From positions 32,001 through 96,000 of the IMG/VR virus record IMGVR_UViG_3300032334_001019: DNA of 64,000 nt; one strand, given 5' to 3'. The position numbers were made by a program, and so were the translations under genes. The notes under the pieces are model-generated. The model was not told the DNA's origin and searched no databases. It saw only the letters and a list, made by a program, of their open reading frames with translations. This stretch comes from a virus. This document shows, in pieces, positions 4,167 through 61,394 of the stretch (positions within the stretch are counted from its first letter, which is position 1; each line of letters begins with the position of its first letter).

Positions 4167-4191
4167 CAAAAGGTTACTGTATAATGTAATA

Positions 4192-7724: not shown

Positions 7725-7725
7725 T

Positions 7726-14080: not shown

Positions 14081-14182
14081 GCTTCTCCTTAGTGACTTTA
14101 CAAGTATACCATAATCTGGTATAATCATTATACCTGCCCATATGGGGGGTAAATTAACTTATTCGCTTGAAAGGGGAATAAT

Positions 14183-20589: not shown

Positions 20590-20612
20590 AATACTCCTTT
20601 TAACTATTATAG

Positions 20613-20685
20613 CACCCCTGGCAGGAATCGAACCTGCGACGCATGGCTTAGAAGTCCATCGTTCTGTCCACTGAACTACAGAGGT
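20613..20685 (-). tRNA. tRNA-Arg(UCU)
   Basis: Acceptor ACCTCTG/CAGGGGT; anticodon loop CTTCTAA; GGTTCGATTCC T-arm; CCA not encoded. Confidence 0.9.
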
Positions 20686-20689
20686 ATTG

Positions 20690-20762
20690 CATCTCCAACG
20701 GAATTCGAATCCGTGTTGCTGCCGTGAAAGGGCAGAGTCCTAGGCCACTAGACGATGAAGAC
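20690..20762 (-). tRNA. tRNA-Glu(UUC)
   Basis: GTCTTCA/TGGAGAT acceptor; TCGTCTAGTGGCCTAGGAC; CTGCC-CTTTCAC-GGCAG. Confidence 0.9.
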
Positions 20763-20766
20763 ATAG

Positions 20767-20840
20767 TACATCTGGAAGGACTTGAACCTTCGGCTCTCCG
20801 CATATAAGGCGGGTACTCTAACCAACTGAGTTACAGATGT
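20767..20840 (-). tRNA. tRNA-Ile(UAU)
   Basis: ACATCTG/CAGATGT acceptor, discriminator A; CCGC-CTTATAT-GCGG; GGTTCAAGTCC. Confidence 0.85.
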
Positions 20841-20844
20841 GTAG

Positions 20845-20919
20845 TACACCAGGTAGGACTTGAACCTACGAATAGCCGAATTATGAGTTCGGTGCCTTAA
20901 CCAACTTGGCTACTGGTGC
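20845..20919 (-). tRNA. tRNA with CAU anticodon (Met or lysidine-type Ile2)
   Basis: GCACCAG/CTGGTGT acceptor; CCGAA-CTCATAA-TTCGG. Confidence 0.88.
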
Positions 20920-23643: not shown

Positions 23644-24195
23644 TTATATTATAATTTTCTTTTCTAAAAGTTTATTGTATTCATAATAACATAAATCAGT
23701 ATTAAAGTCAACCAAACTTATTGTTTTATATTCCTTAAGATTCTGGCTTGATCCTAAATACTTTTCACCATTAAACTTTTTATAATCTTCAATGGTAAAT
23801 TCAAGATTGTCTTCTATTTTTATGTTTAGGTAATCCATAAAATTATTAATTACTAAACTAGAATCATTGACTAAATCATTAAAATCAATAACATAATCTG
23901 CATGTTCATACAAAAATTTATAAAAAAGTATATAGTTTGATAGAACATGATTTATAAAATCTTTGTTAACATCTTGACCATAACTTGATTGCACTGCTAA
24001 AATTGACATAGCAGTTTCTTTTGGGTCTCTGACTATTGTAATAATTTGTTTTGTTTTGTTCATATCTTTATAAAACAAATCTAATATTGTATGAGAGCCT
24101 TCGATTCTGATACCAGTTTTTTGATAAAACAATTGATGAAAATAGTGTGATCCACTTCTTGGATATGTTAATAGATATGGAGGATTGCTATGCAT
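23644..24195 (-). CDS. sulfotransferase-family protein
   Basis: TYPRSGSHY, SH, IVRDPKE..MS. Confidence 0.75.
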   Translation of the reverse strand: MHSNPPYLLTYPRSGSHYFHQLFYQKTGIRIEGSHTILDLFYKDMNKTKQIITIVRDPKETAMSILAVQSSYGQDVNKDFINHVLSNYILFYKFLYEHADYVIDFNDLVNDSSLVINNFMDYLNIKIEDNLEFTIEDYKKFNGEKYLGSSQNLKEYKTISLVDFNTDLCYYEYNKLLEKKIII

Positions 24196-24197
24196 TT

Positions 24198-24743
24198 TTA
24201 AACTATAACTTTCTTTTCTAAAAGTTTATTGTATTCATAATAACATAATCCAATATTAAAATTATCTAGTTTTATTTCATTATATGAATCAAATTTTTTG
24301 CTTGATTGTATCCATCTCTCACCATTAAATTTTTTATAATCTTCAATAATAAAATTTGAATCTTTGTTATATTCTATATTTAAAAAATTTAATATTTTAT
24401 TAACTATGGTATCTGGATATTTAATTAAATCGTTATAATCTATCACATAGTCTGCATGATTATACAAACATTGATAAAGTAAGGCATAGTTTGATATGGT
24501 ATGACGAATAGAGTCGTCATGAACCTCTGTACCCTGTTCTTTTTGCATTGTCAAAAGAGATCGTATGCTTTCTTCTGGATTTCTTGCTATTGTAATAATA
24601 GTTTTTGTTTTTATTTTATTTTTATCAAAAACATCTCCAATTGTGTGAGATCTTTTAAAGCGATACCCTATTTTTGCATAAACTAAATGTTCAAAATAGT
24701 GAGAACCACTTCTTGGGTATGTCAATAAGTGTGGAACCATCAA
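24198..24743 (-). CDS. sulfotransferase-family protein (tandem paralog)
   Basis: TYPRSGSHY, SH, IARNPEESIRS. Confidence 0.75.
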   Translation of the reverse strand: MMVPHLLTYPRSGSHYFEHLVYAKIGYRFKRSHTIGDVFDKNKIKTKTIITIARNPEESIRSLLTMQKEQGTEVHDDSIRHTISNYALLYQCLYNHADYVIDYNDLIKYPDTIVNKILNFLNIEYNKDSNFIIEDYKKFNGERWIQSSKKFDSYNEIKLDNFNIGLCYYEYNKLLEKKVIV

Positions 24744-25774: not shown

Positions 25775-26272
25775 CTACACAAGCCTACGAGATAGTAATA
25801 GATTATATGCCTCATATGCCTTAGATAAGTCATAGCCATCTAAATGGTTTTGACCATACAACTCTGAAGTAGTACTTGATACTAAATAAACCTCATCAGG
25901 CCTATCAATCATAGAGTCTTCATATGTATGGTCAATGACTGGTTTGTTTAATATATAGGATATTGAGTCTATAACTGCATCTGGGTTTTTTATCAGGGTA
26001 TCGTAATCAATAACAGCATTAGCCCTAGTATATAACAAACCATATAGTGCCGTATATTTATCTATCTCTGCCTGTATGCCTATATCCTGATGATAATGTG
26101 ATGACATAGTTATGAAAGACTGAAGTGTATCTTTAGGGTTTCTTGCTATAGTAAAGACAAAGCCATCTGCATCATCTATCAGGTGTGAGCCATCTATCCT
26201 AGTATCTAACTTTTGTACAATCAATGCTCTTAAGTAATGTGAGCCAGATCTAGGATAGGTAATTATGATCAT
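25775..26272 (-). CDS. sulfotransferase-family protein
   Basis: TYPRSGSHYL, IARNPKDTLQS. Confidence 0.75.
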   Translation of the reverse strand: MIIITYPRSGSHYLRALIVQKLDTRIDGSHLIDDADGFVFTIARNPKDTLQSFITMSSHYHQDIGIQAEIDKYTALYGLLYTRANAVIDYDTLIKNPDAVIDSISYILNKPVIDHTYEDSMIDRPDEVYLVSSTTSELYGQNHLDGYDLSKAYEAYNLLLSRRLV

Positions 26273-28768: not shown

Positions 28769-29224
28769 TTAGATTGCTCCTAGGTCTCTTAGTTCTTCAA
28801 TACTAGCACAGCCTGCACATTTTTGCAACTCCTCAAACTTTTCAAAATGTAGAGTTGCTTGCTCGTCATCCCATATCATCTCACAATTTGGGCATTCGTA
28901 AGATGGTTCGATAACCGATACCTGATAATCCTTGCTTTCATCCCAAGGTACCTCAGTAACAAAATAGCCAATCCTATTAACAATGCAGCGACCATTAATA
29001 ACATAGGTACCCCCATCATCTCCGTCAATGTATGTCCAAGTATATAATGGGTCAGCGTCAGAAACATACTGTACTTCATCACCGTAGGTCTCAAACATAA
29101 TGCCACCTTCGCCATTGTCAAATGAAGCATTTTCATCTAGATGATTGGTGATAGGCTTGTAGGTCTCTAGCCATTCATCAAAGTCTATCTCTATAAGTTC
29201 GTTAGGCAAAGTACTTCTCCTCAA
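28769..29224 (-). CDS. hypothetical phage protein
   Basis: YKPITNHL...MFETYG...VNRIGYFVTEVPW; C-terminal CxxC pairs; start uncertain. Confidence 0.65.
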   Translation of the reverse strand: MRRSTLPNELIEIDFDEWLETYKPITNHLDENASFDNGEGGIMFETYGDEVQYVSDADPLYTWTYIDGDDGGTYVINGRCIVNRIGYFVTEVPWDESKDYQVSVIEPSYECPNCEMIWDDEQATLHFEKFEELQKCAGCASIEELRDLGAI

Positions 29225-29441
29225 TGTTTTTGCGGTCTATAGATAAATTATAGGTCATGCAGTATGCACTTGTCAAGGCTTCCATATACCCTTCCAAAAA
29301 TCTATCAGCATTGCCTTCCATGGCGTACTCGCACTCCAGCATTTCTTGCTTTAGCCACCCATGCATGAGGTCAATCAGAGGTATAGAGATGTCCTCTAAT
29401 GGTTTAGTTAAATATTCGGGGATGAATGGATACTTACTCAT
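29202..29441 (-). CDS. hypothetical protein
   Basis: ORF in early block. Confidence 0.55.
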   Translation of the reverse strand: MSKYPFIPEYLTKPLEDISIPLIDLMHGWLKQEMLECEYAMEGNADRFLEGYMEALTSAYCMTYNLSIDRKNIEEKYFA

Positions 29442-29586
29442 TGATTACTTCAATCAGATGTTTAACAGCATAGATTTGTCCCTCGATATCTACCACATGG
29501 ATAGAGGCTGGGTTTTCTTCAAGGTCTTGTTCAAGACTTATAAGGTGCAGGTTTAGATACTCTTTAAATGTTTTTAGGTCCATATA

Positions 29587-29826
29587 TTAATTATAAGGGT
29601 TGGTGTTGATTTTTACAAGTTTTGCTGGTGTGACCTTCATCACAGGCTCATCGTCAGGTGTTGGATCTTCATCCACATGTGTAACAGTAGTATTCCATTT
29701 GCTTAATAGGATTACATGTGATGTAGCATGGCAAATACAGGCGGGATCAATCTGAGGATTAACAGATGCGCTAATCTCTATAAGAGCATCACAATCAGTA
29801 CAAAGATAACTATACTTAGTCCACAT
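29587..29826 (-). CDS. small zinc-ribbon protein
   Basis: YLCTDCDALIE...CIC; SD AAGGAG. Confidence 0.6.
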   Translation of the reverse strand: MWTKYSYLCTDCDALIEISASVNPQIDPACICHATSHVILLSKWNTTVTHVDEDPTPDDEPVMKVTPAKLVKINTNPYN

Positions 29827-30350
29827 ATTAGTCTCCTTGATTAACTAGATAAGCACGAACTTCTTCCAGGGCATCAATAGCCTGTTCACATACTACAATC
29901 ATATCTTCTCTAGTCATTAGTCAAAATACCCTTCTGCCCATAGACCCTGGAGGAATGCATAGGTCTTAGCCAAACCATCAGAAACAGTTTCATCTGTTGT
30001 GTAATCATGAGCGGTACCAACTGAGTTAATCATTTCATCTAACTCTATTTTAGTATATCCTAGCATTATTCAACATACCCCACAATCATTTGCATAGCCT
30101 GGTGTAGGAAGCAATCGCAATCCCCACCATTCATATTTTCCATTAGTTCAAAGTGTGAGAAGTTATCCTCGTAGATAGCGGTAAGTAGTTCATCTATTGT
30201 GTATGGTTTATAGGTCGTTGTCATAGATTAATTCTACCCTAGACTGGGGAAAAATGCAAGTCATCTTAAAGTTTTTATATAAGAAATTTCATTGTCCGAA
30301 ATGTCCGTTTTTCACGTCCCGCATTTTTATGCATATCAGTGAATAAAAAT

Positions 30351-30378
30351 TGAGCAGTTTATTCTCATGCTCAGGAGA
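30351..30378 (-). ncRNA. pseudoknot motif copy
   Basis: TCTC-CTGAGCAT-GAGA-ATAAAC-TGCTCA. Confidence 0.7.
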
Positions 30379-30386
30379 TTTTTTAT

Positions 30387-31403
30387 TTATGCAATCTGCA
30401 AAGTGCTTTGCACAATTTTGAGCAAACGATTTTTCTCTGCGTTAATTGCAGGGTCAAATCCGCTTGCACTTGCAAGGATAGATTCGTTAGAACCACCACG
30501 AGCAGAACGATACCAATCTAAACGCTCTGTGAGCGCATTGAAAGCGCCCCATGCGTTACCAGCAATCATTCCGTTAAACTCGCCTGTGTAGATGTCGTTA
30601 ATAACATCGACCTTGTTTTCCCACTTCTTGAACGCACCCTTAGAGTCTTTTTCAGGCTTAGGGTATGCAGCAAGAATGATGTCGTTGAATTGCTTAGCAT
30701 TGACTTCTGTTTCAATCATAGCCTTAGCCATGAGGTCAAAAGAATCCATGTACTTATGAGCCATGCCTAATGTCTCACGAGCAACTTGTACCTTGCCAGC
30801 AGCAGTTTGCGTGTGGCGAATCTTGAAAGATTGCTTGATGCCATTCTTACGCTTAGTAGTGTTAAGTGCAAGATTGAGGGTGTTAGCGCACACAACACGA
30901 ACAGGTGTTATGCTTGCTTGAATAGCGATTGAGCCATCGTGTGATGTGTTGATTAGAAGATAAGTCTTTACCTTATCTGCTACACCGTTAGGGTCAAGAA
31001 CTGTTTCACGCTCTAGTGCTAAAGCGCCAAATACTACACGACCACCCTTGATTGAGCCAGCGGTCTCCCAACGACCTCCGCCGTCAAGAATGTTATCACC
31101 AAATGAAAATAAATCTTCATTCTGCATAACATGATAACGCTCACCTACGACACCTAAAATGTCTGTCTGTGAATTATCTGTAGGGTTAGTACGCAAAACA
31201 TACTGGTATGTCTTGTCGCTTGTTAAATGTGATGGGGTTTCCAAATCTTCCAGACGAACATTCCAACCATTGAGGTTTGCAGCCTCTAGCATTTCTGCTG
31301 TTGTTTTTTCTTCTGTAAATACGGTACCCAATCCATGCCAAGCGGGTTCACGAAATGATGCGAATGAAGCCTTACCATTTTGTGTTTCGATTTCATGTGC
31401 CAT
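30387..31403 (-). CDS. DUF932/DUF945-family phage protein
   Basis: MAHEIE, REPAWHGLG, ETAGSIKGG, NTSHDGS, TPVRVVCANTL, IRHT; SD AAGGAG. Confidence 0.9.
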   Translation of the reverse strand: MAHEIETQNGKASFASFREPAWHGLGTVFTEEKTTAEMLEAANLNGWNVRLEDLETPSHLTSDKTYQYVLRTNPTDNSQTDILGVVGERYHVMQNEDLFSFGDNILDGGGRWETAGSIKGGRVVFGALALERETVLDPNGVADKVKTYLLINTSHDGSIAIQASITPVRVVCANTLNLALNTTKRKNGIKQSFKIRHTQTAAGKVQVARETLGMAHKYMDSFDLMAKAMIETEVNAKQFNDIILAAYPKPEKDSKGAFKKWENKVDVINDIYTGEFNGMIAGNAWGAFNALTERLDWYRSARGGSNESILASASGFDPAINAEKNRLLKIVQSTLQIA

Positions 31404-31434
31404 GAGTTTACTCCTTTGTTGTTGTTGAGATTTA

Positions 31435-31463
31435 AGTATAACAGGATGGGCTGACAAATGCAA
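31435..31463 (-). promoter_or_regulatory. promoter TTGCAT-17-TATACT with TGTCAG box
   Basis: Direct reading; upstream of DUF932 gene. Confidence 0.75.
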
Positions 31464-41260: not shown

Positions 41261-41536
41261 ATGACAACACATGCACTAACACAACTGAGTAACACAACTG
41301 CTACTCGTTTAACTCCAAATGGAGTACACTCTGGTATGGATGTAACTTTACAAAATGTAAATGCAGAAGCATATATCTATATTGGTGGAGAAGATGTAAA
41401 TTCAGAAAATTATGGATATAGAATTTCTCCTAACAATGCTTGGTCTGTAGAACTACCTGGCCAAGATGCACTATATGCAATTTCAGATACTAATGGTGCA
41501 TATATTGCAATCTTACAGATGGGGCTTGAAAACTAA
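41261..41536 (+). CDS. small structural protein
   Basis: Beta-rich; in tail module. Confidence 0.55.
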   Translation: MTTHALTQLSNTTATRLTPNGVHSGMDVTLQNVNAEAYIYIGGEDVNSENYGYRISPNNAWSVELPGQDALYAISDTNGAYIAILQMGLEN

Positions 41537-43056
41537 TGTCACGATTTACACAACCAGGTGGTGGAAGCGGATCTGGTACTCCAGGACCACAAGGACCACA
41601 AGGTCCACAGGGAGAACCTGGAGATGCTGGTGCACAAGGTGCTGCTGGAGATCCATTTGGTATTTACTATTTAGGAAATTACAATTCAGAGTCTGGATAT
41701 CTTCCAAACATTGCAGTAGTTAGAGGATCAGATGGACAACTATATCTTGCAAAAGCAAGTGGACAACTTGGTGATCCAGTTTATTATGAAGTTAATGGAC
41801 AATGGGAAGTATGGATTCCTAAAGGTGCAGATGGGGCAAATGGAGCATCTTCATATTTTCTTGGTACATGGAATAGTGTAGATGAATTTCTTGCAGTATA
41901 TCAAGGTGGTCCAATAGGATTAGCAGTAGGAGATTGGTGGGCTTTTGTAAAGGATAATGAAAACCCAAATAAAATTTATGTAGTTCGTGAAAACCCTGCT
42001 TCTTTAACTGGATGGGTAATTGATGATAACGAACATTTTGTCTTGCCTCAAGGACCAGCAGGTGAAAATGGAGCAAGCCCCTTTACTCTTGTAGGTGCAT
42101 ACGATAATGGTGTTTCATATAACTTAGGAATTGCTGTTTATTATAATGGCGGAACATATGTAAGAACTGGTAATCCACTTAATCCTGGATACCCTCCAAC
42201 AGTAGGCTCTGTAAATGCATCATGGACACCTCTTGCAGAAAAGGGGTATGATGGAAGCCAACTTAATTATTGGGATGGAACTGGCACACCTTTAAATCCA
42301 GCAGAAGATGGTTTCTTAATTATTGACGGTGTTGTTACTGGATTAGGACGGGGGCTATTAGTATCTGCTTCAGATAAAATTACAATAAATGCAAACAACG
42401 GTGAATTTTTAAATGATTCAAATGTTTCATCAAATCAGATTGCAACTATTGGAGATTTGCCAAACCTTTCATCATACGAAGGAGATATTCTTCCATCACA
42501 AGACAACCAATATGTTTTAGGTAATTCAGAAAATAGATGGAAGTCTATATCTATTGGTGAAGGAACTATTTATATTACTGACGCTACCCTGGGAACAGAA
42601 GTAGGGTTAACTATTGATGATGGTATTTTCTTTATTGACGGAATTGCACAAGCACAATTGCCTGATGTTAAAATTACAAACTTAACTTTTGCCGATAACC
42701 ACACTCAAACACACTCCTCAGATATTCTTCTCATCAGTCACCAAGATGGTAATCAGACACCATTTGAGACTGTTGATCTAACAAAACAAATTTTGGTAAT
42801 GAGTGACGGAACATGGACACTGCCAGATGGTGCAGAAGGACAGATCATGTATTTTGTTCAAGGAAACGGCGGGAGTGCTGAAGATTCATATCTTAATGTT
42901 GCACACTTAAAATACAATAATAATGGACTAGCAACACAAATGAATAATGGTGTATGGTCTCCATTTAATTATGAATCTGGACATGCACAAAGCCCAATGT
43001 GCACAGCAATATTTACTGATGGATATTGGTCATTTAGTAATGGAAGAAAACGATAG
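41536..43056 (+). CDS. collagen-repeat tail fibre protein
   Basis: GPQGPQGPQGEPG; G.ILP...Y.LG....RW. Confidence 0.7.
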   Translation: MSRFTQPGGGSGSGTPGPQGPQGPQGEPGDAGAQGAAGDPFGIYYLGNYNSESGYLPNIAVVRGSDGQLYLAKASGQLGDPVYYEVNGQWEVWIPKGADGANGASSYFLGTWNSVDEFLAVYQGGPIGLAVGDWWAFVKDNENPNKIYVVRENPASLTGWVIDDNEHFVLPQGPAGENGASPFTLVGAYDNGVSYNLGIAVYYNGGTYVRTGNPLNPGYPPTVGSVNASWTPLAEKGYDGSQLNYWDGTGTPLNPAEDGFLIIDGVVTGLGRGLLVSASDKITINANNGEFLNDSNVSSNQIATIGDLPNLSSYEGDILPSQDNQYVLGNSENRWKSISIGEGTIYITDATLGTEVGLTIDDGIFFIDGIAQAQLPDVKITNLTFADNHTQTHSSDILLISHQDGNQTPFETVDLTKQILVMSDGTWTLPDGAEGQIMYFVQGNGGSAEDSYLNVAHLKYNNNGLATQMNNGVWSPFNYESGHAQSPMCTAIFTDGYWSFSNGRKR

Positions 43057-43111
43057 AATTAACTGGTCTGGCGGAAACTGGTAATTTAAAATACAATGAG
43101 ATAATGTCGTT

Positions 43112-43840
43112 ATGGCTACTTCTAAATCTATGGATTTCCCTGGTGCAAAAAAATCTAGTTATGCTGCACAAGTAGAGCAAAGCCAAGCATCTACATATCA
43201 AGAAAACACTCTTTCATTCCTTCCAGTGCCAGGCCCAGTAGGACCACAGGGGCCTGCAGGTAGAGACGGCAAAGATGGAAAGCAAGGACCTGAAGGTCCA
43301 GAAGGAAAACAGGGTCCTAAAGGTTTACAGGGTCCAGCAGGAAAAGATGGCCTAAGTTCTCTATCATCTTCAGGACAGCAAGCAGGATGGGCTTCATATC
43401 ATAATAAGTCTCAAAAAGCATTTAAACTTGGAATTTCAGAAGGAGATGATGGGTGGGCAACAGTATTCATTATTTCTGATGATTCATCAAATGAAAAATT
43501 TTTACCTAAAGGCTGCACATCCTTATGGAATGATAATTCAAGATCTTTTAACTTTAAAGGTTTGGAAATCGGTGCACAAGTATTCATTACATATAGTTTT
43601 GAGTTGACTACATATAGTAGTAATACTGAAACATGGATTAGGACATATTCACCTAATAGTGACTTAGATGTTGCTCAATTTATAGGTTCTATGAAATATC
43701 AGCATACATACCCAATAACAGTTACTCAGCAAATATTCATAGAAAACCAAAAAATCTGGGGTAACGGGGCAATTCCTCAAATTAGAACAGATTATGATGC
43801 ATCAGTAATTCTTAAATCTGTATATGTCAGCGTGGTATAA
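43112..43840 (+). CDS. collagen-repeat structural protein
   Basis: Extended Gly-X-Y stretch. Confidence 0.75.
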
Positions 43841-44845: not shown

Positions 44846-45298
44846 ATGGCTTCTGAATACATTGATGATACTGAAACTGGCACTGGGATATACCCAACAA
44901 AAATACCAGGGTACGAAGATGCTGCAGATATTCAAGAAGCATTAAAAATATATCACTATGGAACAACAACGATTCCACAAACAACAGGGGCAGTAGATTC
45001 AAAATCTGTTGCAGGACATTTATTATCATTAAGACAAGATCTTAATACAGAGATTGCAAGAGGAATTGGGTCTCAGATATCTAACTCAGCACCAGTATCT
45101 CCTGAAGATGGTTTTATTTGGGTAGATGCAGATACAGATGTTCCAGGTGTTGCAACATATTCAACTGCTGTGTATACAAATATTGCACCAACTACTGGAT
45201 TAACAAATGGGATAATCTGGGTAGAAAAAGGTTCTAGTCCATTAAAAATGTATGTATATAACAGCGATACATCTGCATGGGATGAGATTGGTGCATAA
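44846..45298 (+). CDS. structural protein
   Basis: AP...G.IWV repeats typical of fibres. Confidence 0.6.
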   Translation: MASEYIDDTETGTGIYPTKIPGYEDAADIQEALKIYHYGTTTIPQTTGAVDSKSVAGHLLSLRQDLNTEIARGIGSQISNSAPVSPEDGFIWVDADTDVPGVATYSTAVYTNIAPTTGLTNGIIWVEKGSSPLKMYVYNSDTSAWDEIGA

Positions 45299-47421
45299 TG
45301 ACAACATTTAGCAGCACTCCAAAACCAGCATATATTTATGATGAGGCATCTGATACTTGGTATCTTGTTAGTGGAATAGTAAATACTGCATATCCATATA
45401 CATGGACAGCGCCCAACACATTTGATGCTGTATTAACAGCAAAGGCTGGTGTTAATAATTTTGCAACATTAGCAGATAGAGATACTGCACTTGGACTAAC
45501 ACCAAGTAGTGGAGTTGTTTGTTTTGTTAGAGCAGATAATAGTTTAAACTCAATTAATCAATTACAGTATTTTGATGGCTCAAAATGGAAAACAATTCAT
45601 GATGCAACATTTGTTGATAAGTCATCAAACTATGTTATACAAAAGCATGATGTTAATAAAACAATTAAAGTTGGATCACCATCTGATTCGTCAAGCGGTA
45701 CAATAACTATAACTATTCCAAATAACTCAACTCAATCATTTGAAATTGGAAATAAAATTAATGTTGTTAGATATACTCCAAAACAAGTTTCTATTGTTCA
45801 AGGTTCTGGTGTAACAGTTTTTAGTAAATATAGTTCATTAGATATTGTTCCACAATTTGGAATGGTTGTACTTACAAAAATTGATACTAATTCTTGGTTG
45901 GTTACTGGAGATTTAGTTGGATCTATTCCATCAACACCAACTCCAACTCCAACTGCTACTCCTACCCCTACACCTACTCCTACAACTCCACCACCAATTA
46001 CAGATCCACCAATTACTCCAACACCTACCCCAACACCACCAATTACAGATCCACCAGTAACCCCAACACCTACTCCAACAGTAACCCCAACGCCTACTCC
46101 AACAGTAACTCCAACGCCTACGCCGACACCTACTCCTACACCTACGCCAGATAATAAATATTATTATACATATTGCTATGGTGGTCAGACTTATAATGGA
46201 AATTCAAGCGTTCTTAATTGTGCAGAAATTGAAGCCAACCTTGGAGAAGGATCAACCAGTTTTGCTTGTCAACAAGGATCTGCACCAACACCTGCAGTTT
46301 GTAGCGTAACACCAACGCCTACTCCAACAGCAACACCAATTCCAACTTGGTATTTCTGCTGTAGTAATGGCGCAGGTGGATCTGTATCTGCAGCAAATGC
46401 TGGAATAGCAGCAGGATTAGCAAGTACATGGTGTGCTAATGAAGAACCTGGAAATACTTTATCTGGTGGAGTTTATTCAACACCACAAAGTTGTAATTCT
46501 ATAACTCCTACACCAACACCGACTTCTACACCAACACCTACACCTTTAGATTGTTCTGACGCTGGATTCTTAAATCAAGCAGATTGTTTAGCATGTGGAT
46601 ATACCTATACAGGTGGAACTTGTTATGATACACCAAACCCTAGTGCAACACCTAATCCAACACCTACACCAACACCTACTCCTTTAAATTGTTCTGATGC
46701 TTCATTCTTAAACCAAGCAGACTGTTTGGCATGTGGTTACACTTACACAGGTGGAACTTGTTATGATACACCAAATTTCACTCCTACACCAACACCAACT
46801 GCAAGCCCTAGCCCTACCCCTTCTCCAACTCCTTCACCAAGCCCTAGCCCTACTCCAACACCAACTCCTACACCTACTCAAAACTGTACACCAATTTATC
46901 AAGGTATTGAAAATAGACAGTGCAATGGAAACTCAACACCAGTTGCAATTTATTTAAATCCATGTACTGGAGTTTATACTTGGAATTGCCCACCAGTAAC
47001 TCCTACCCCTACACCTACACAACCACCAGTAACACCAACACCTACACCTACACAACCACCAGTTACCCCTACACCTACACCAACACAGCCACCAGCAACA
47101 CCAACACCAACACCAAGTTGTAGTCCAAATCAAGGTAATTCTTGTTTAGGTCCTGATGGATGTGCTGGAACAATTGGATGTAATGGAATTTGTTCATGTA
47201 ATCCATCTCCATTTAGCGTCTTTAGTTTCTCACCATTTAGCGTATTTGGTTTCTCACCATTTAGCGCAGCCTTCTCAGTCTTTGGTTTCTCACCATTTGG
47301 CGCAGCCTTCTCAGTCTTTGGTTTCTCACCATTTAGTGCTGCATTTGGCGTATTTGGTTTCTCACCATTTAGCGCAACATTCTCAGTCTTTGGATTTGCA
47401 CCATTTACTGCACCAGACTAA
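45298..47421 (+). CDS. tail fibre-like protein with Thr-Pro linkers, Cys modules and C-terminal Phe-rich FSPF repeats
   Basis: Fibre-type N-terminus, (TP)n tracts, duplicated CSDA.FLNQADCLACGYTYTGGTCYD module, FSVFGFSPF repeats. Confidence 0.75.
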   Translation: MTTFSSTPKPAYIYDEASDTWYLVSGIVNTAYPYTWTAPNTFDAVLTAKAGVNNFATLADRDTALGLTPSSGVVCFVRADNSLNSINQLQYFDGSKWKTIHDATFVDKSSNYVIQKHDVNKTIKVGSPSDSSSGTITITIPNNSTQSFEIGNKINVVRYTPKQVSIVQGSGVTVFSKYSSLDIVPQFGMVVLTKIDTNSWLVTGDLVGSIPSTPTPTPTATPTPTPTPTTPPPITDPPITPTPTPTPPITDPPVTPTPTPTVTPTPTPTVTPTPTPTPTPTPTPDNKYYYTYCYGGQTYNGNSSVLNCAEIEANLGEGSTSFACQQGSAPTPAVCSVTPTPTPTATPIPTWYFCCSNGAGGSVSAANAGIAAGLASTWCANEEPGNTLSGGVYSTPQSCNSITPTPTPTSTPTPTPLDCSDAGFLNQADCLACGYTYTGGTCYDTPNPSATPNPTPTPTPTPLNCSDASFLNQADCLACGYTYTGGTCYDTPNFTPTPTPTASPSPTPSPTPSPSPSPTPTPTPTPTQNCTPIYQGIENRQCNGNSTPVAIYLNPCTGVYTWNCPPVTPTPTPTQPPVTPTPTPTQPPVTPTPTPTQPPATPTPTPSCSPNQGNSCLGPDGCAGTIGCNGICSCNPSPFSVFSFSPFSVFGFSPFSAAFSVFGFSPFGAAFSVFGFSPFSAAFGVFGFSPFSATFSVFGFAPFTAPD

Positions 47422-47442
47422 TCATTATGATATACTTTTAAG

Positions 47443-48651
47443 ATGTCAGAAATTGATAAAAAAGAAGAAGATCTTAGACAAGTTAGACCATGGGATTTTT
47501 TTAATCCAAATACTGAATATGCAACAAAAGAAGTTCAGTCTGCAAGATTTGATATTTGTAAATCTTGTCCAGAATTAATTAAACTAACATCGCAATGTAA
47601 AAAATGTGGTTGTGTCATGAGATTAAAAACTAAGTTAGCACTTGCAACATGTCCTATAGGTAAATGGGGTACTGCAGAAAAATTAACTCCAGAATTAATA
47701 CAAGAAGACTCAGTATCTAGAATATTTATTAATATACCTTCATATAAAGATCCAGAAATTTGGCTAACAGTAGAAAACTTTATTAAAAATGCTAAATATC
47801 CAGAAAGAGTTTTTTTTGGCATTACATTACAATCTAATAATATTTATCAAGATAGAATTCAGTCATTTGAATATAATAATGTTAGTCTAGATGCTATTGA
47901 ACCTGGATCAATTGTAGGCTGTCAGCCAGCCAGAAAAAATTCTCATAAATTTTATAGAAATGAAGAATATTATTTAAATATGGATTCACACATGAGGTCT
48001 ATAAAAAACTGGGATGTAGAAATAATTAGAGAATACGAATTTAATAAAGAACATTATGGTGTATCAATATTTACTGCCTATGCCCCACCTTATGATTTAT
48101 TGCCAGATGGAACAGATGATATTAATCCAGATATAAGTTCAAACCCTACATTTTTTATGTCTGAATCAAACATATCTAATTTTTATAAAAATTTAGTTCC
48201 ACAGTTTACATCTCAATATACCAATCCTGGACACAATGTATTATCTCCATATATTTCTGGACATTTTTTCTTTACAGAAAAACAAGTAATTGAAAGGGTT
48301 CCATTTATGTCTGAGATAACATTTACAGAAGAGGAACCCTTAATGGCTTTAAGATTTTTTACTGCTGGATTTAATCTTGTAACACCTAGTAAGGTTTTTG
48401 TATATCATAGATATGGAAGAGGTGGAAGAAGCCTATTTTGGGAAGATTTTCCAGAAAAGTTTTTCCCAGAAGATGAAAAATCTAGAAACTATTTTAGAGA
48501 ATTAGTTACAACAAATAAAATAGACCCAGTAAGTGGTCTTTTTACAGAAAGATCACTAGAAGATTATGAGAAGTATTCTGGTATAAGTTTTTCAACAGCA
48601 ACCCTTCATGAGGGAGTAAAGTCTGGACTTCCTTCTGGTTCTTTCAAATAA
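47443..48651 (+). CDS. GT60/Skp1-type (hydroxyproline) GlcNAc transferase fused to an N-terminal Cys-rich domain
   Basis: IFINIPSYKDPE, PERVFFG, GCQPAR, YYLNMDSHMR..NWD, EE..MALR..TAG..L..P....YH.Y. Confidence 0.75.
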   Translation: MSEIDKKEEDLRQVRPWDFFNPNTEYATKEVQSARFDICKSCPELIKLTSQCKKCGCVMRLKTKLALATCPIGKWGTAEKLTPELIQEDSVSRIFINIPSYKDPEIWLTVENFIKNAKYPERVFFGITLQSNNIYQDRIQSFEYNNVSLDAIEPGSIVGCQPARKNSHKFYRNEEYYLNMDSHMRSIKNWDVEIIREYEFNKEHYGVSIFTAYAPPYDLLPDGTDDINPDISSNPTFFMSESNISNFYKNLVPQFTSQYTNPGHNVLSPYISGHFFFTEKQVIERVPFMSEITFTEEEPLMALRFFTAGFNLVTPSKVFVYHRYGRGGRSLFWEDFPEKFFPEDEKSRNYFRELVTTNKIDPVSGLFTERSLEDYEKYSGISFSTATLHEGVKSGLPSGSFK

Positions 48652-48693: not shown

Positions 48694-49245
48694 TTATGAT
48701 GGGAATTGTGTCATTAAATTTTTTGTTTTTGGCGTAATACCGTGCCAAGATGACCAATCTTTTCCACCGTTACTCATATGATATGCAATTTGAGCATTTA
48801 AAACTGGATTGAATAATTCAGCATTAGAAGAGAGTTCAAACTTATCTCTTCTATCTGGACCAAGAATTCCTAGCATGTTAATTTGAAAAAGTCCAAAAGA
48901 TGAGTCTCCAGTGCTTGCATTTCCGTTAAATGCTAGAGGTCTTCCTCCAGATTCTTTTTTAGCAACAGCCCAGGCCTCAATAAGGTCCTTTCCTTTAAAT
49001 CCAACTAAAGATAATAAACTTTTTAACTCTAGATCAGTTAGAGAAACCTTATTTGAAAAACTCTCCAACATTTTCTCTTTAGAAACCAAAAAAACCTCTT
49101 TCGAGGTAGTTTGCGATGTCTGAGCCTGTTCGGGACTCAAATTATTAATAGTATTAGCGTTAGCAGCATTAGAAAAAACACTGATAAGTGCTACGGTACT
49201 GAGTATGCTAATGATCTCTTTGTTTCTTTCGATAAATTTAATCAT
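48694..49245 (-). CDS. secreted lysozyme-like transglycosylase (SLT)
   Basis: Signal peptide ending ANA; AVAKKESGG, DSSFGLFQINM, LFNPVLNA, GGKDWSSW; promoter TTGACT..TATACT and SD AAGGAGG. Confidence 0.85.
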   Translation of the reverse strand: MIKFIERNKEIISILSTVALISVFSNAANANTINNLSPEQAQTSQTTSKEVFLVSKEKMLESFSNKVSLTDLELKSLLSLVGFKGKDLIEAWAVAKKESGGRPLAFNGNASTGDSSFGLFQINMLGILGPDRRDKFELSSNAELFNPVLNAQIAYHMSNGGKDWSSWHGITPKTKNLMTQFPS

Positions 49246-49376
49246 AGTTTCCTCCTTAGAAAACAATAACACCCTGGTAGGTGTCTACTGATAAGTATAA
49301 CATGTTTTTGTCTCAAAAGTCAAATATTGTAACATTTTTTATAAAATAATTTATTCAAACATGGTATAATAATTAA

Positions 49377-56743: not shown

Positions 56744-57403
56744 ATGCAATATAGCATGAATATACCACCAAGTGTGAGCAAGTCAACACAGCCACACAGA
56801 TTCTTTGAAAGATTTTTAAATAATGATCTTCAAGAATTAACAGTAGAACTTCAAGATAGATATCAAAAAATCCAGGAAGCAAAAGTTGCTGGTGTTACAC
56901 CAGTAGGAGAAAATGAATTTTGGAAGCAGTCTAATAGTGTTTCTACTATGAAGTGGAGACAGTATAATGTTTTTCAGTTTCACTCATCTGGACTCTATAA
57001 TCTTTATTCATCAATCTCTGATATGGTTAAAGAAGCATGTCAGTATTATGGTTTAGATTTTAATGAACAGCAATATATGGTTCAGGGTTGGTTCAATATT
57101 AACTATACAAAATCTGGTAAGTTAGATTGGCATGACCATGGCCCAGAAGGTGCACCAAACTTTCACGGATACTATTGTGTAAGTGCAGAACCTTCTACAA
57201 CACATTATCGTGTTTTTGATAAGAATGTTGAAAATAATAACTTAAACAACCGTGCAATTTTGTCTGAAATGGGCCATCCACATGCTCAAGCAGACTGGGA
57301 CTGGGAAGGTCCAAGAATTACAGTTGCATATGATGTAATTCCATTGAAAGATTTAAAGAAATTTGCAATGGATCAAGAACAGCATTGGATACCACTAATA
57401 TGA
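56744..57403 (+). CDS. putative 2OG-Fe(II) oxygenase
   Basis: GWFNIN, WHDH, HGYYCV, HPH, RITVAYD. Confidence 0.65.
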   Translation: MQYSMNIPPSVSKSTQPHRFFERFLNNDLQELTVELQDRYQKIQEAKVAGVTPVGENEFWKQSNSVSTMKWRQYNVFQFHSSGLYNLYSSISDMVKEACQYYGLDFNEQQYMVQGWFNINYTKSGKLDWHDHGPEGAPNFHGYYCVSAEPSTTHYRVFDKNVENNNLNNRAILSEMGHPHAQADWDWEGPRITVAYDVIPLKDLKKFAMDQEQHWIPLI

Positions 57404-58038
57404 GCGAAAAGAAAGCACACAGATTTTATTTTAGACATTTAGAAAATGATTTAGAAGAACTTAGTCAGTATTTAACACAAAAACAAGAAGAACTTTTAAA
57501 CGGAACATGGCTAAATATAGATAAAGAGATTTTATCTGAATACAATAAGTATAATGGACCAACCACACAACTTGGTTCACTATACAACATCTTTAATCTT
57601 GATGTACCAAGCATAGTTAATCTAAAGTCTGCAATTAGAGATGCAGTAAAAGATGCTTGTGATTACTACGAGTTAGATTTTGAGGCATTGGATTATATGA
57701 TTCATGGATGGTTTAATCTTGACTATAAGACTGAGGGTGACAATGGTGTTAACCCAGTAAAGAATGAAGTCTTCATGCATGACCATATGGGTGGAGAAGG
57801 TGCACCAGTTTTCCATGGCTACTACTGTGTAAATGCAGAACCATCAATAACATACTATAAGATTGACGGCAAGCATCTGCATGAAAACCATAATCAAAAT
57901 AATAAACTAATTGTTTCAGAAACTGGTCATCCACATGGAAGAGATGATTGGTATGAAGATAAGCCAAGAATCACTATTGCATATGATATCTCTCCTTTAG
58001 AAAGAGATGGCAAAGGCGAAAAGTGGATAAAGTTATAA
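57400..58038 (+). CDS. putative 2OG-Fe(II) oxygenase, paralog of the upstream gene
   Basis: GWFN, MHDH, HGYYCV, HPH, RITIAYD. Confidence 0.65.
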   Translation: MSEKKAHRFYFRHLENDLEELSQYLTQKQEELLNGTWLNIDKEILSEYNKYNGPTTQLGSLYNIFNLDVPSIVNLKSAIRDAVKDACDYYELDFEALDYMIHGWFNLDYKTEGDNGVNPVKNEVFMHDHMGGEGAPVFHGYYCVNAEPSITYYKIDGKHLHENHNQNNKLIVSETGHPHGRDDWYEDKPRITIAYDISPLERDGKGEKWIKL

Positions 58039-58253: not shown

Positions 58254-60287
58254 ATGTCAGATTTTTTTAGTTTTAGACTTCCAGAAGATTTTGTAGAAAA
58301 GTACAAGAATACAGAAAGCCCATTTGGATTTAAAGATGCAGCAGAAAATTCACTTGGAGAGATTACTTTTATTCGTACATATTCTCGGATGAAGGAAGAT
58401 GGAACTAAGGAAAGATGGCACGAAGTATGTCGTCGTGTAATTGAAGGTATGTATTCAGTTCAAAAGAATCATGCTAAAGAAAACCGTCTTCCATGGAATG
58501 ACTATAAGGCTCAGAAGTCAGCACAAGAAGCATTCCAAAGAATGTTTGAGTTGAAGTGGACCCCACCAGGACGAGGTATGTGGGCATTTGGAACTCCTAT
58601 GACTATGGAGAAAAAGAACTCAGCAGCACTGCAAAACTGTGCAATGGTTTCTACAAAGGACCTTGACAAGAATGATCCAGGAGCATTATTTGCTTGGGTT
58701 ATGGATGCACTTATGCTTGGCATTGGTGTAGGGTTTGATACAGTTGGACAGGATAAGAATTTTTCAATCTATGCCCCAACAGAACCAGAACAGGTGTTTG
58801 AAATCCCAGATACCCGTGAAGGATGGGTAGAATCAGTTAGACTTTTAATCAACTCTTACCTAAGACCAAACCAGAGCATTCAGAAGTTTAACTATGATTT
58901 GATTAGACCTCTTGGAGCACCTATTAAGGGCTTTGGAGGCGTTGCATCAGGACCTGCACCTCTTATCAAGTTGCACGACCAGATAGACCGTGTAATCGGC
59001 TCCAGAGGCGGGGAAACACTAGATTCTCGTGCCATCGTAGACTTAGTAAACCTTATTGGTACATGCGTTGTATCAGGCAATGTACGTAGGTCAGCAACAC
59101 TTGCTTTAGGTAACGCTGGTGATGATACATTTATGAATTTAAAGAACTCAGAAATGTTCCCAGAGCGCAACTCGTTTGATCCAGAAAATCCAGGTTGGGC
59201 TTGGATGTCAAACAATTCTATTTCAGCAGAAGTAGGAACAAAGTACGAAGATTATGTAGATTTAATTACAGAAAACGGAGAACCAGGTTTTATTTGGCTT
59301 GATGTTGCTCGTAATTATGGACGACTAAAGGATGCGCCAGACGGTAAGGATTATCGTGTGATGGGATTTAACCCATGTGCGGAGCAGCCATTGGAATCAT
59401 ATGAATTGTGTACACTTGTAGAAGTGCACTTGAATCGTCATGAATCTAAGGAAGACTTCCTGCGTACCCTGAAGTTTGCATACCTTTATGGAAAGACTGT
59501 AACTCTTGTTCCAACACACTGGCCACAAACAAACGGTATCATGCAACGCAACCGTCGTATTGGTACATCACTAACAGGTATTGCGTCATTTGCAGATCAA
59601 AAGGGTTTGCCAATTGTTCGTGAGTGGATGGACGAAGGATACAACAAGATCCGTCACTATGACCACCAGTATTCAGAATGGCTTTGTGTTCGTGAATCAA
59701 TTCGTGTAACAACAGTTAAACCATCAGGATCAGTTTCAATTCTTTCTGGTGCAACTCCTGGAGTTCACTGGGGTCCTGGAGGAAACTTCTTCCTTCGTGC
59801 AGTTAGATTTGGAAACACAGATCCAATGATGCACTTGTTTAAAGCAGCAGGGTACACAATTGAAGATGACGTAGTATCAGCAAATACATCAGTAGTTTAC
59901 TTCCCAATTAAATCAGGCCATCCAAGATCTGAAAAAGATGTAACATTGTTTGAAAAAATTGCACTTGCTGCAACTGCTCAAAAGTATTGGTCTGATAACG
60001 GTGTTTCTGTAACGCTTTCTTTTGACAAGGAAACAGAATCAAAGCATGTTGTTCCAGCACTTCATATGTACGAAGGACAACTAAAGGCAGTATCATTCCT
60101 TCCAATGGGAAATACAGTTTATCCACAACAGCCATATACTCAGATTACTGAAGAAGAGTATAATAGTTATGTTGGAAAGTTGAAGCACATTGACTTTGGA
60201 GCAATTTACGACGGTGTGGACAATCTAGAAGCACAAGGTGAAGCATATTGCACAACTGATTATTGTGAAATTAAGATAGGAAAGTAA
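58254..60287 (+). CDS. nrdJ: class II (adenosylcobalamin-dependent) ribonucleotide reductase
   Basis: RTYSR, PPGRG, NC, GNVRRSA, NPCAE, TTVKPSG, C-terminal CTTDYC. Confidence 0.93.
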   Translation: MSDFFSFRLPEDFVEKYKNTESPFGFKDAAENSLGEITFIRTYSRMKEDGTKERWHEVCRRVIEGMYSVQKNHAKENRLPWNDYKAQKSAQEAFQRMFELKWTPPGRGMWAFGTPMTMEKKNSAALQNCAMVSTKDLDKNDPGALFAWVMDALMLGIGVGFDTVGQDKNFSIYAPTEPEQVFEIPDTREGWVESVRLLINSYLRPNQSIQKFNYDLIRPLGAPIKGFGGVASGPAPLIKLHDQIDRVIGSRGGETLDSRAIVDLVNLIGTCVVSGNVRRSATLALGNAGDDTFMNLKNSEMFPERNSFDPENPGWAWMSNNSISAEVGTKYEDYVDLITENGEPGFIWLDVARNYGRLKDAPDGKDYRVMGFNPCAEQPLESYELCTLVEVHLNRHESKEDFLRTLKFAYLYGKTVTLVPTHWPQTNGIMQRNRRIGTSLTGIASFADQKGLPIVREWMDEGYNKIRHYDHQYSEWLCVRESIRVTTVKPSGSVSILSGATPGVHWGPGGNFFLRAVRFGNTDPMMHLFKAAGYTIEDDVVSANTSVVYFPIKSGHPRSEKDVTLFEKIALAATAQKYWSDNGVSVTLSFDKETESKHVVPALHMYEGQLKAVSFLPMGNTVYPQQPYTQITEEEYNSYVGKLKHIDFGAIYDGVDNLEAQGEAYCTTDYCEIKIGK

Positions 60288-60892
60288 TGAATATAGTAGA
60301 AGGTTTTATTGATAAAGATGATCTAAAAGTTGTACAAGATTATCTTAGTACAATTGTTTTTCACACAAAAGAAGAACATGTCCCTCTTCATGATAATCTA
60401 TTTGATAATGGTGCACCTTTCGATATTCATACTCGTGGAGAGATGCCAGATCATATCCTAGAAGTTTTTTCAAAGTATTCAAAGGGTTACTATAATTTAG
60501 TTCAATCAGAGAATACAGATGAATACCATCCAGCAATGTTTTCAAAACACTACATTGCAAGATATAAGCCAGGATCTTCAGATCAACCACATCACAATGA
60601 GCATTCAAAGCCAGAAGGAACATATGTTTCATACATTGTTTGGCAGAACGCTAACTCTGGTGGAGAATTTATTTTTCCTAAATTAGAAAAAACATTTTTG
60701 GCAAACCCTGGAGATCTTATTTATTTTAAGGATACAGAAGAAAATATGCATGGTCTATCAGAAATTAAAGATGGGTTCTTATTTTTATCTGAGGCATGGA
60801 TGGGTAAAAAGGGTCAACTTTGGATGGAAAATAGAAGTACATATGAAGAGGTTCAGTGGGATGACTGGGAGATAAAAGGTTTTCATGAGTGA
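60287..60892 (+). CDS. 2OG-Fe(II) oxygenase-like protein (divergent)
   Basis: ARYKPG...PH, GGEFIFP, PGDLIYF, MHG. Confidence 0.65.
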   Translation: MNIVEGFIDKDDLKVVQDYLSTIVFHTKEEHVPLHDNLFDNGAPFDIHTRGEMPDHILEVFSKYSKGYYNLVQSENTDEYHPAMFSKHYIARYKPGSSDQPHHNEHSKPEGTYVSYIVWQNANSGGEFIFPKLEKTFLANPGDLIYFKDTEENMHGLSEIKDGFLFLSEAWMGKKGQLWMENRSTYEEVQWDDWEIKGFHE

Positions 60893-61394
60893 CAAGATTA
60901 AACTTGTAAAAGGTTTTATGGATGCTAAAGATGCAGAAATAATCTCATCATATGCTAAATCTGTAGATCACACTTTTACTGAGTTTGGTAATGGAGAAAA
61001 AGAGTTTACCTTTCATGCTTCTTTTGAAAATACAGATGTCTTAAATCTTTTAAATGATTATGGCAAGTTAGTTCTTGGCTTTGTTAATAACAATTACGAA
61101 GGACCATTTCCAGACTTTGATTCATCAAAAACACATATTGCTCGTTTCCAAGAGGGAGTGGGTATGCATGAGCACTTTGACTCAACAAAGCCAAATGATA
61201 TTGCAACACTCATATATTTAAATGACTCTTACGAGGGTGGAGATATATATTTCCCAGATCATGGTGTAAGCATAAAGCCAGAACCAGGAGATTTAGTTTG
61301 TTTTCCAGATACTCCAGATTTTGTGCATGGAGTTAGACCAATTACAAGTGGTATTAGATATACATCACCCCGTTGGTTTACACGCATAGTGTGA
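60885..61394 (+). CDS. 2OG-Fe(II) oxygenase, prolyl-4-hydroxylase-like
   Basis: HEHFD, YLNDSYEGGDIYF, PGDLVCFP, HGVRPITSGIRY. Confidence 0.88.
   Translation: MSDKIKLVKGFMDAKDAEIISSYAKSVDHTFTEFGNGEKEFTFHASFENTDVLNLLNDYGKLVLGFVNNNYEGPFPDFDSSKTHIARFQEGVGMHEHFDSTKPNDIATLIYLNDSYEGGDIYFPDHGVSIKPEPGDLVCFPDTPDFVHGVRPITSGIRYTSPRWFTRIV

Follow-up and report, generated by a model that had tools for sequence, protein, structure and literature searches.

Glycosyltransferases (GTs) of family GT60 transfer alpha-linked N-acetylglucosamine (GlcNAc) from uridine diphosphate (UDP)-GlcNAc, Gnt1 to hydroxyproline (Hyp) and the mucin-type members to Thr; the trypanosomatid and Dictyostelium alpha-GlcNAc-transferases of this family start mucin-type O-glycans on Thr, for which a hydroxylase is not needed, and the sugars on plant Hyp come from other GT families. 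In the protist Skp1 pathway, glycosylation of the Hyp by GNT1 follows the action of a prolyl hydroxylase, as outlined in sections of PMC11570480. Very few systems are known in which phage enzymes glycosylate virions, one being that of mycobacteriophages, whose GTs decorate the phages' own structural proteins (Freeman et al., 2023, as described in part of PMC12619734). Here we consider a stretch of 64,000 nucleotides (nt), referred to below as the window, which comprises bases 32001-96000 of the IMG/VR virus record IMGVR_UViG_3300032334_001019; coordinates are those of the window unless the genome is named. In it, the gene of a 707-residue (aa) fibre-like protein with long Thr-Pro (TP) tracts (45298-47421, plus strand) is followed, across a spacer of 21 nt, by that of a 402-aa GT60 enzyme (47443-48651, plus strand), so that the direct succession described in an initial annotation of this DNA is correct. 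We consider it probable that the two genes constitute a substrate-enzyme cassette, in which sugar would be placed on the TP linkers of the fibre, and we are slightly more confident that the fibre is the substrate of the GT at all.

The enzyme is composed of two domains, a six-Cys module and, at residues ~91-402 (nt 47713-48648), a GT-A glycosyltransferase domain that Pfam places in PF11397 (GlcNAc; Gnt1/GT60) with 136.1 bits against a cut-off of 21 (E=2.6e-39), the alignment running in two stretches over model positions 2-41 and 92-309 of 352. The initial annotation had arrived at a GT60/Gnt1 enzyme from three motifs, and comparison with this profile hidden Markov model (HMM), which it proposed, bears the assignment out. 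All three motifs are present in the translation and lie on fully or nearly invariant columns of an alignment of 27 sequences (I94, F95 and D103; D181, H183, R185, W190 and D191; E298, R304 and G309); D181-x-H183 (here D181-S-H183), H322 and 15 further columns are invariant in 27/27 sequences. An AlphaFold model of the enzyme, built with the alignment (pLDDT 91.3), has as its best neighbours in the PDB almost exclusively polypeptide N-acetylgalactosamine (GalNAc)-transferases of family GT27 (E~1e-9, TM~0.5, 11-14% identity), those named being human T1, T2, T4, T10 and T12, fly PGANT9 and Toxoplasma T3. This structural neighbourhood, together with the Pfam assignment, argues for a polypeptide-type GT-A transferase and not for a generic GT2 polysaccharide enzyme, the grouping that would have spoken against the initial proposal. 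The enzyme is not itself a member of GT27: Pfam returned PF11397 and neither a GT27 nor a GT2 family, and no lectin domain was found in the 402-aa protein. Sequence searches of the PDB with the enzyme alone and with the 27-sequence profile gave no solved GT60 chain and nothing meaningful, and NCBIfam had no match for the enzyme or for the two GT61 genes mentioned below. By tblastn, the GT domain was covered in only four jumbo Xanthomonas/Stenotrophomonas phages, at 24-25% identity, and eight other records aligned to the Cys module alone; a nucleotide search with the 3.35-kb fibre-GT region found zero matches among 50,697 GenBank phage records. Judged by eye only, the phage enzyme looks soluble.

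The proposed substrate stands out by its composition. Pro and Thr together make up 33% of the fibre, the sole open reading frame (ORF) to exceed 25% when all 154 ORFs of 60 aa or more in the 118,464-bp genome are considered. Its N-terminal part, residues ~1-206, is globular, and residues 108-206 match the C-terminal ends of minor tail (E 1.8e-10) and virion structural (E 4.5e-4) families of PHROG. In the middle part small Cys-rich modules, at least five in number and two of them near-identical, are interspersed between linkers of (Thr-Pro)n and related sequence, and the C-terminus carries ~6 copies of a 12-residue Phe/Ser/Pro repeat (nt 47209-47407). Tandem Repeats Finder reports arrays at 45932-46149, 46308-46346, 46504-46880 and 46990-47116, in agreement with the position of the TP tracts noticed earlier (about 45930-47115). 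Pfam gave no family for the fibre, and tblastn with its N-terminus as query gave no match. The fibres of two relatives (loci L014:285-3074 and L148:422-3151) end differently, with another short repeat followed by a Hint/intein-like domain of the self-cleaving type.

If the fibre is the substrate, genes of this kind might be expected beside GT60 genes elsewhere. A scan of IMG/VR with the GT alignment gave at least 589 loci, of which the best-scoring 79 (L011-L089), not a random sample, were retained together with flanks of up to 6 kb. A stop-to-stop frame of at least 60 aa was counted as a TP ORF when it contained a 30-residue stretch with at least 8 Pro and at least 22 Pro+Thr+Ser. For control we took 80 viral loci anchored on relatives of one oxygenase of this phage that belongs to PF13640, a Pfam family of prolyl 4-hydroxylase (P4H)-type oxygenases; the controls are unmatched for lineage or genome region. 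A TP ORF lay within 6 kb in 46/79 GT60 loci and in 5/80 controls (Fisher p=3.6e-13, odds ratio 21, about ninefold), and the enrichment persisted under seven further thresholds based on Thr by itself or on Thr+Pro (p 1e-5 to 8e-13). The association suspected in the initial annotation, of this GT with Pro/Thr-rich fibres across phages, is therefore real in this sample. It is also strongly oriented: the TP ORF was upstream on the same strand at 40 loci, at 33 of them within 700 bp, compared with 15 loci with one downstream and three with one on the other strand. After merging GTs of more than 95% nucleotide identity, 37 of 66 groups had a TP ORF, immediately upstream in 24, and all 10 loci whose GT is at least 47% identical to that of the window have a TP fibre upstream.

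One could argue that the linkers are plain unmodified spacers, and that GT and fibre co-travel merely as parts of a swappable accessory region. Pro/Thr linkers do occur without GT60 nearby, as in the five positive controls, and 33 of the 79 GT loci lack a TP ORF by our criterion. However, the size of the enrichment and the bias in order and strand are hard to reconcile with such a view, as is the persistence of the association over distant GT clades (~30% identity) and on bacterial chromosomes; moreover, many of the 33 apparently negative loci have Thr-rich, Pro-poorer tracts just upstream of the GT (L020, L021, L023, L024/25, L047/48, L051 and L081). We thus regard plain spacers as improbable. 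The tracts at the negative loci indicate that the common denominator of the upstream proteins is a Thr-rich, usually also Pro-rich, low-complexity tract.

The association extends to cellular genomes. Among 185,579 species genomes of bacteria and archaea, 504 relatives of the GT were found, and 32 of the 80 bacterial loci kept met the TP criterion, although high GC content may inflate this number. At nine Sphingomonadales-type loci (for example Sphingomonas), a protein of ~1200 aa ends at the GT start; for one of the nine, an Rv2525c-like domain confirms that the protein is real. As the GT family is common in bacteria, the description of the pathway as eukaryote-style in the initial annotation misleads and is not retained here. 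At 47 of the 79 viral loci the GT has near it a methyltransferase joined to an HtrL/YibB (PF09612) domain, which makes this its most frequent neighbour; in four relatives from databases PF09612 is fused straight to PF11397, and GT25 genes are present at 10 of the 79 loci. These HtrL/YibB and GT25 neighbours look like glycan elaboration functions and would fit a protein-glycan pathway. The HtrL/YibB neighbours and the PF09612-PF11397 fusions also suggest a second, oxygenase-free type of fibre-glycan cassette.

The six-Cys module at residues ~32-75 of the window's enzyme (nt 47536-47667) delimits a smaller clade. It weakly resembles DUF6171 (PF19668), at 19.9 bits and so below the cut-off of 27, and matches phrog_13558 with E=1.4e-16; a stand-alone homologue in L148 scores above the DUF6171 cut-off, at 28.1 bits. 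According to an HMM built here, the module is present at 14 of the 79 GT loci, fused to the GT or as a separate small ORF, namely at all 10 close relatives and at L020, L021, L023 and L051. With another HMM, built from the genome's own 2-oxoglutarate (2OG)-Fe(II) oxygenases and cluster members, a PF13640-type ORF was found within 6 kb of the GT at seven of the 79 loci, directly before the GT in L014, L017, L018, L019, L022 and L023 and as six copies after it in L051. All seven have the Cys module (7/14 with the module vs 0/65 without, p=1.2e-6; dereplicated, 5/11 vs 0/55, p=5e-5). In L014, whose GT is 85% identical to that of the window, the TP fibre, which here has a C-terminal Hint-like domain, is followed by the oxygenase, the Cys-module ORF, the GT and the SLT_3 lysozyme; in L017 the order is TP fibre, 145-aa ORF, Cys-module ORF, oxygenase, GT and SLT_3. 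Nine of the ten closest relatives have PF13640 somewhere in the record (four copies in L011, six each in L012 and L016, one each in L015, L017 and L022), the remaining one being L013, an 8.4-kb contig with no PF13640.

The two kinds of domain are also found within single ORFs. L148:4765-6261 is one 498-aa phage ORF with PF11397 in its N-terminal part (109.7 bits) and PF13640 in its C-terminal part (69.1 bits), and the genes that precede it are those of a fibre-like protein, Pro-rich and Hint-capped, of another oxygenase and of a DUF6171 protein. The protein collection contains this fusion and a second GT60-PF13640 fusion, P0124, in which the DxH motif is lost. Three open frames of 2009, 2033 and 2319 aa in metagenome-assembled genomes (MAGs) of Rickettsiales/Alphaproteobacteria combine several PF11397 domains with two PF13640 domains (L247:4054-10080, L226:4276-10374 and L233:3952-10908); these are stop-to-stop frames whose true starts are not fixed, and those in L247 and L233 also contain an AhpC/TSA peroxiredoxin domain. 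The presence of the AhpC/TSA domain beside oxygenases raises the question of a redox role for the six-Cys module of the phage enzymes. A fusion of GT60 and PF13640 shows that both enzymes share a pathway or a substrate, but not that Hyp is the acceptor. Separately, the 593-aa protein P0130 joins a GT25 domain to a PF13640 oxygenase. The animal collagen hydroxylysine galactosyltransferases belong to GT25, and P0130 is reminiscent of the hydroxylase-glycosyltransferase pairs that act on collagen.

The oxygenases next to the GT appear to be of the prolyl hydroxylase type. In an alignment of GT-adjacent oxygenases with three copies from this genome, H134, D136 and H187 are conserved in 11/11 sequences and R197 in at least 90%. 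We modelled the GT-adjacent enzyme of the relative L017, which keeps HxD...H...R (pLDDT 86.6). The top PDB match of this model is Chlamydomonas P4H-1 (2jig; 3gze, with a (Ser-Pro)5 peptide); Dictyostelium PhyA (6t8m) is among the three best, the chlorovirus PBCV-1 prolyl hydroxylase vCPH (5c5t) is fifth, Pseudomonas PPHD, PHD2 and Bacillus anthracis P4H are further matches, and all but two of the matches listed to rank 50 are prolyl hydroxylases. A sequence search of the PDB with the L014 oxygenase gave nothing meaningful. These results bear on the idea that the GT does not act on the fibre, the adjacency being incidental, and instead modifies DNA bases hydroxylated by a TET/JBP-like oxygenase or host envelope glycans, for example to block superinfection. 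Passages of PMC10202952 do interpret GTs of freshwater actinophages as serving DNA protection or cell-wall modification, and an oxygenase that this genome encodes outside the window has a weak, sub-threshold Tet_JBP match (21.4 bits, cut-off 34.9). Nevertheless, the family and the nearest folds of the GT are those of polypeptide transferases, the L017 model has neither TET/JBP nor AlkB entries among its matches listed to rank 50, and in 24 dereplicated viral groups, as well as in bacteria, a Pro/Thr-rich gene on the same strand immediately precedes the GT. A target other than the fibre therefore seems very unlikely to us.

In the genome under study the situation is less simple. Of the five 2OG-Fe oxygenases proposed in the initial annotation of the window, the two at 13424-14128 (minus strand) and 60885-61394 (plus strand) belong to PF13640 by Pfam, and both keep the HxD...H triad in the 11-sequence alignment, 13424-14128 with the R as well. 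A third, at 60287-60892 (plus strand), is a divergent protein of 2OG oxygenase fold, with HxE instead of HxD; it has no Pfam match at E<=0.001, an hhalign probability of 95.8% to the oxygenase alignment, and 27% identity to 60885-61394 (E 5e-14). The other two, a pair of plus-strand paralogues at 56744-57403 and 57385-58038 that are 43% identical to each other, are unconfirmed as oxygenases: they have no match in Pfam, PHROG or NCBIfam, and 56744-57403, the one of the two that was compared, reaches an hhalign probability of 15% to the oxygenase alignment. Their look-alike clusters in the ESM-Atlas carry PF13759 (score 0.96), which is only a lead. One more PF13640 oxygenase is encoded outside the window, at genome positions 30785-31447.

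We take 13424-14128 as the best candidate for the fibre hydroxylase, because no other protein of this genome is closer to the oxygenases lying between fibre and GT in the relatives. The oxygenase copies at 56.7-61.4 kb, downstream of the fibre-gene cluster and 8-13 kb downstream of the GT, may be syntenic with the oxygenase blocks of L011 and L012, since the latter are at a similar distance on the same side of the GT. A second, divergent PF11397-like gene (26.2 bits) occurs just before the window, at genome positions 29199-30071. It directly precedes two oxygenases (region 29199-31447, equal to L008:9199-11447), one of them PF13640 with 64.6 bits. We considered this gene as the true partner GT of a P4H and set it aside: DxH is replaced by ADN in it, which makes its activity doubtful. 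Weak matches to the GT60 HMM are likewise found in the frame just upstream of the oxygenase in the oxygenase-anchored relatives L090, L091, L093, L098 and L099. Two collagen-like proteins with Gly-X-Y repeats are encoded in the fibre region, at 41536-43056 and 43112-43840, the second recognized by Pfam as Collagen, and these could be alternative substrates for the P4H-type oxygenases.

Several observations weigh against a hydroxylase-dependent fibre cassette and need to be considered together. None of the three PF13640 genes of this genome adjoins the GT, and for the fibre-adjacent oxygenases of the relatives no clear orthologue is encoded here, the best match, 13424-14128, being 27-40% identical to those of L014, L017, L022 and L148 (E 1e-17 to 1e-20). 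TP proteins are not usual neighbours of phage PF13640 oxygenases, as the 5/80 control loci with such a protein indicate, and these oxygenases could serve other targets, such as the collagen-like proteins at 41536-43840. Among the long (>=50 kb) GT60-bearing viral records, 27/30 have no PF13640 match; the three that have one are L016, L022 and a third that is sub-threshold, so that two are over the cut-off. Of the five GT60 records estimated to be at least 90% complete, one has a match, and this match is the one below the cut-off. Poly-Thr tracts with few Pro lie directly upstream of the GT at several loci, including the oxygenase-linked L023 and L051. Finally, the 79 loci were the highest-scoring among at least 589 and the controls are unmatched for lineage and region, and the close relatives are one phage lineage, for which reason the features they share are not independent.

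It follows that GT60 genes cannot be described in general as lying near prolyl hydroxylase genes, and we reject that statement on the basis of the 7/79 loci and 3/30 long records with a match. Many of the 27 long records without PF13640 pair the GT with TP proteins, so hydroxylation is not a general requirement, and Thr would serve just as simply as the acceptor. The link between hydroxylase and GT is real but confined to the Cys-module clade. The pathway of hydroxylase followed by GT that the initial annotation envisaged accordingly finds some support, from adjacency and fusion, in the clade to which the window's GT belongs, but none from an oxygenase beside this GT or from the majority of long GT60 records.

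These considerations give weight to a direct, mucin-type O-glycosylation, in which GT60 would put sugar on linker Thr (or Ser) with no hydroxylation, the oxygenases acting elsewhere, for instance on the collagen-like fibres, or on Pro independently. The absence of PF13640 from 27/30 long and 4/5 of the most complete GT60 records, despite the frequency of TP proteins beside the GT, favours Thr as the general acceptor, because GT60 evidently can serve TP proteins without a P4H there. Thr is moreover the common denominator of the upstream proteins, poly-Thr tracts included, the nearest solved folds are those of Ser/Thr-directed GalNAc-transferases, and the GT of the window has no adjacent or clearly orthologous oxygenase. 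Such a scenario does not readily explain why oxygenase genes are placed exactly between fibre and GT in the closest relatives, why GT60 and PF13640 are fused in phage and bacterial ORFs, or why the oxygenase is exclusive to the Cys-module clade, which includes the window's GT. The same three observations, together with the Gnt1 precedent, lead us to favour Hyp in this particular clade. We would put the likelihood of Hyp as the acceptor a little short of even, regard the direct Thr route as only somewhat less likely, and leave the remainder to other targets or to no modification.

The mechanism we propose for the fibre-GT cassette can then be outlined as follows. The apparently soluble GT-A enzyme of the GT60 family, fused to its six-Cys module, would modify a polypeptide in the infected cell by transferring sugar onto many sites in the linkers of the fibre. 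By family precedent the sugar would probably be an N-acetylhexosamine such as GlcNAc. The product would be a mucin- or extensin-like, sugar-coated rod. In the Cys-module lineage, P4H-type 2OG-Fe(II) oxygenases might act on the same fibres, and the order of events that we find most likely, at a little below even odds, would be conversion of Pro to Hyp and then attachment of sugar to it, which is how protists modify Skp1. What we observe is to which family and fold the GT belongs, how the fibre is composed, that the two genes stay side by side, and that an oxygenase link, fusions included, exists within one clade; the fibre as acceptor, the acceptor residue, the sugar, the oxygenase that acts and the benefit to the phage are the parts of this outline that we infer from them. 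A bolder extension, which we find doubtful, is that tailed phages infecting freshwater bacteria build Hyp-linked extensin- or mucin-like fibres by means of their own P4H and GT60 pair, with the six-Cys module helping and with the two-step chemistry that protists apply to Skp1, and that the GT60-P4H fusions of phages and Rickettsiales-like bacteria mark a prokaryotic and viral pool ancestral to eukaryotic cytoplasmic Hyp-glycosylation, perhaps also to mucin-type glycosylation.

Should the proposal be true, many environmental phages would sugar-coat the exposed linkers of their fibres, given the at least 589 IMG/VR loci that encode the GT, and the coating would have consequences for protease resistance, stiffness, host recognition and antigenicity. 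It would give a concrete role to hundreds of 2OG oxygenases and glycosyltransferases of aquatic viromes that are labelled auxiliary metabolic genes. It would also mean that polypeptide glycosylation directed to Hyp or Thr, with kinship to the protist Skp1 and mucin-type pathways, exists in the bacterial world, which bears on the origin of those pathways. Our literature search, whose coverage left out most subscription journals, found no paper on a phage GT60/P4H fibre system; for GT60 with phage, the only match was a CAZy listing in a sponge-virome preprint. Within the reach of these searches, phage virion glycosylation is undescribed for fibre linkers, for GT60 and for prolyl hydroxylases, whereas phage virion glycosylation as such and the chemistry of P4H plus GT60 were known already.

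The surroundings of the two genes and the rest of the genome provide some context. Upstream, a 150-aa ORF (44846-45298, plus strand) with no family match overlaps the fibre start with its stop; comparison of translations shows its homologue in L014 to be the N-terminal portion of the fibre protein. Downstream, the cassette ends at an SLT_3 lysozyme-like protein on the minus strand (48694-49272), a neighbour of the GT that is conserved in close relatives. The record of 118,464 bp has direct terminal repeats, is judged complete, and has a GC content of ~36%. It encodes portal, prohead protease and HK97-type capsid genes as well as a DnaE-type polymerase, RecA and DnaB, and we take an ORF of 2780 aa, from its size alone, to be tape-measure-like. 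A WhiB gene is located at 7642-8013; WhiB serves as an actinophage indicator in a paper on phages of Nanopelagicales (PMC10202952). With WhiB as the pointer, we infer an uncultured, lake-type, siphovirus-like phage whose host would be a low-GC actinobacterium. Four tRNA genes (Arg-tct, Glu-ttc, Ile-tat and Met-cat) are on the minus strand at 20612-20919. A B12-dependent (class II) ribonucleotide reductase lies within the oxygenase block, at 58254-60287, and is 62% identical to an 'Actinomycetia phage' enzyme and ~61% to that of mycobacteriophage Gaia.

The genome may also supply further tailoring functions. Two GT61-family glycosyltransferases (8014-8970 and 8967-9914, both plus strand), which are possible glycan-building genes, are followed by a fusion of a beta-phosphoglucomutase-like haloacid dehalogenase (HAD) domain with a sugar-1-phosphate nucleotidyltransferase (9907-11271, plus strand); the putative glycan-building genes of 8014-11271 might be linked to the fibre. 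A NodU-like carbamoyltransferase and a tryptophan-halogenase-family flavoenzyme are encoded at 247-1680 and 4126-5724. An adenosine 5'-phosphosulfate (APS)-kinase-like protein with a cytidylyltransferase-like tail and three short ORFs with sulfotransferase domains (3113-3874, 23644-24195, 24198-24743 and 25775-26272) could constitute a phage sulfation kit, with supply of 3'-phosphoadenosine 5'-phosphosulfate (PAPS) and transferases, perhaps for glycans or proteins.

Lastly, we return to the described systems with which this locus needs to be compared. With the Skp1 pathway of Dictyostelium and Toxoplasma (PhyA/PHYa and Gnt1/GNT1), the phage system has in common the GT family PF11397 and, within the clade of the window's GT, the genetic coupling of a P4H-type oxygenase to the GT by adjacency or fusion; in addition, PhyA itself is one of the three closest structures to the L017 oxygenase model. 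Unlike Skp1, a single cytoplasmic regulatory protein modified at one proline, the phage candidate is a fibre of virion type in which Thr-Pro occurs at hundreds of positions, and no oxygenase is located beside the window's GT, so that at most the chemistry would be common to both and not the target. To our knowledge Gnt1 has no six-Cys module, whereas the phage GT carries one. The mucin-type GT60 enzymes are of the same family and have Thr/Pro-rich, mucin-like acceptors, in keeping with the predominance of long GT60 records without PF13640; unlike these eukaryotic Golgi membrane proteins, the phage enzyme looks soluble and belongs to an oxygenase-tied clade. The GT27 GalNAc-transferases of animals and apicomplexans, the best structural neighbours, share the GT-A fold and a DxH-type metal site with the phage GT, and their acceptors are mucin peptides rich in Pro, Thr and Ser; the phage enzyme differs from them in its low identity of 11-14%, its PF11397 assignment and the lack of any lectin domain seen.

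Extensin-type Hyp glycoproteins of plants and green algae and the P4Hs of giant viruses are a further point of reference, since Chlamydomonas P4H-1 and the PBCV-1 hydroxylase, with repetitive Pro-rich structural targets, are structurally near the L017 oxygenase; those systems are eukaryotic or belong to viruses of eukaryotes, whereas here the host is a bacterium, probably an actinobacterium as judged from WhiB. The mycobacteriophage system shares with our candidate the use of phage GTs on the phage's own virion proteins, but its targets, in the account given in part of PMC12619734, are the C-termini of capsid and tail-tube subunits instead of fibre linkers, and no link to GT60 or prolyl hydroxylases is mentioned there. 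The GT60 pathway of this phage would work like Skp1 modification or like mucin-type initiation, directed to a different target.

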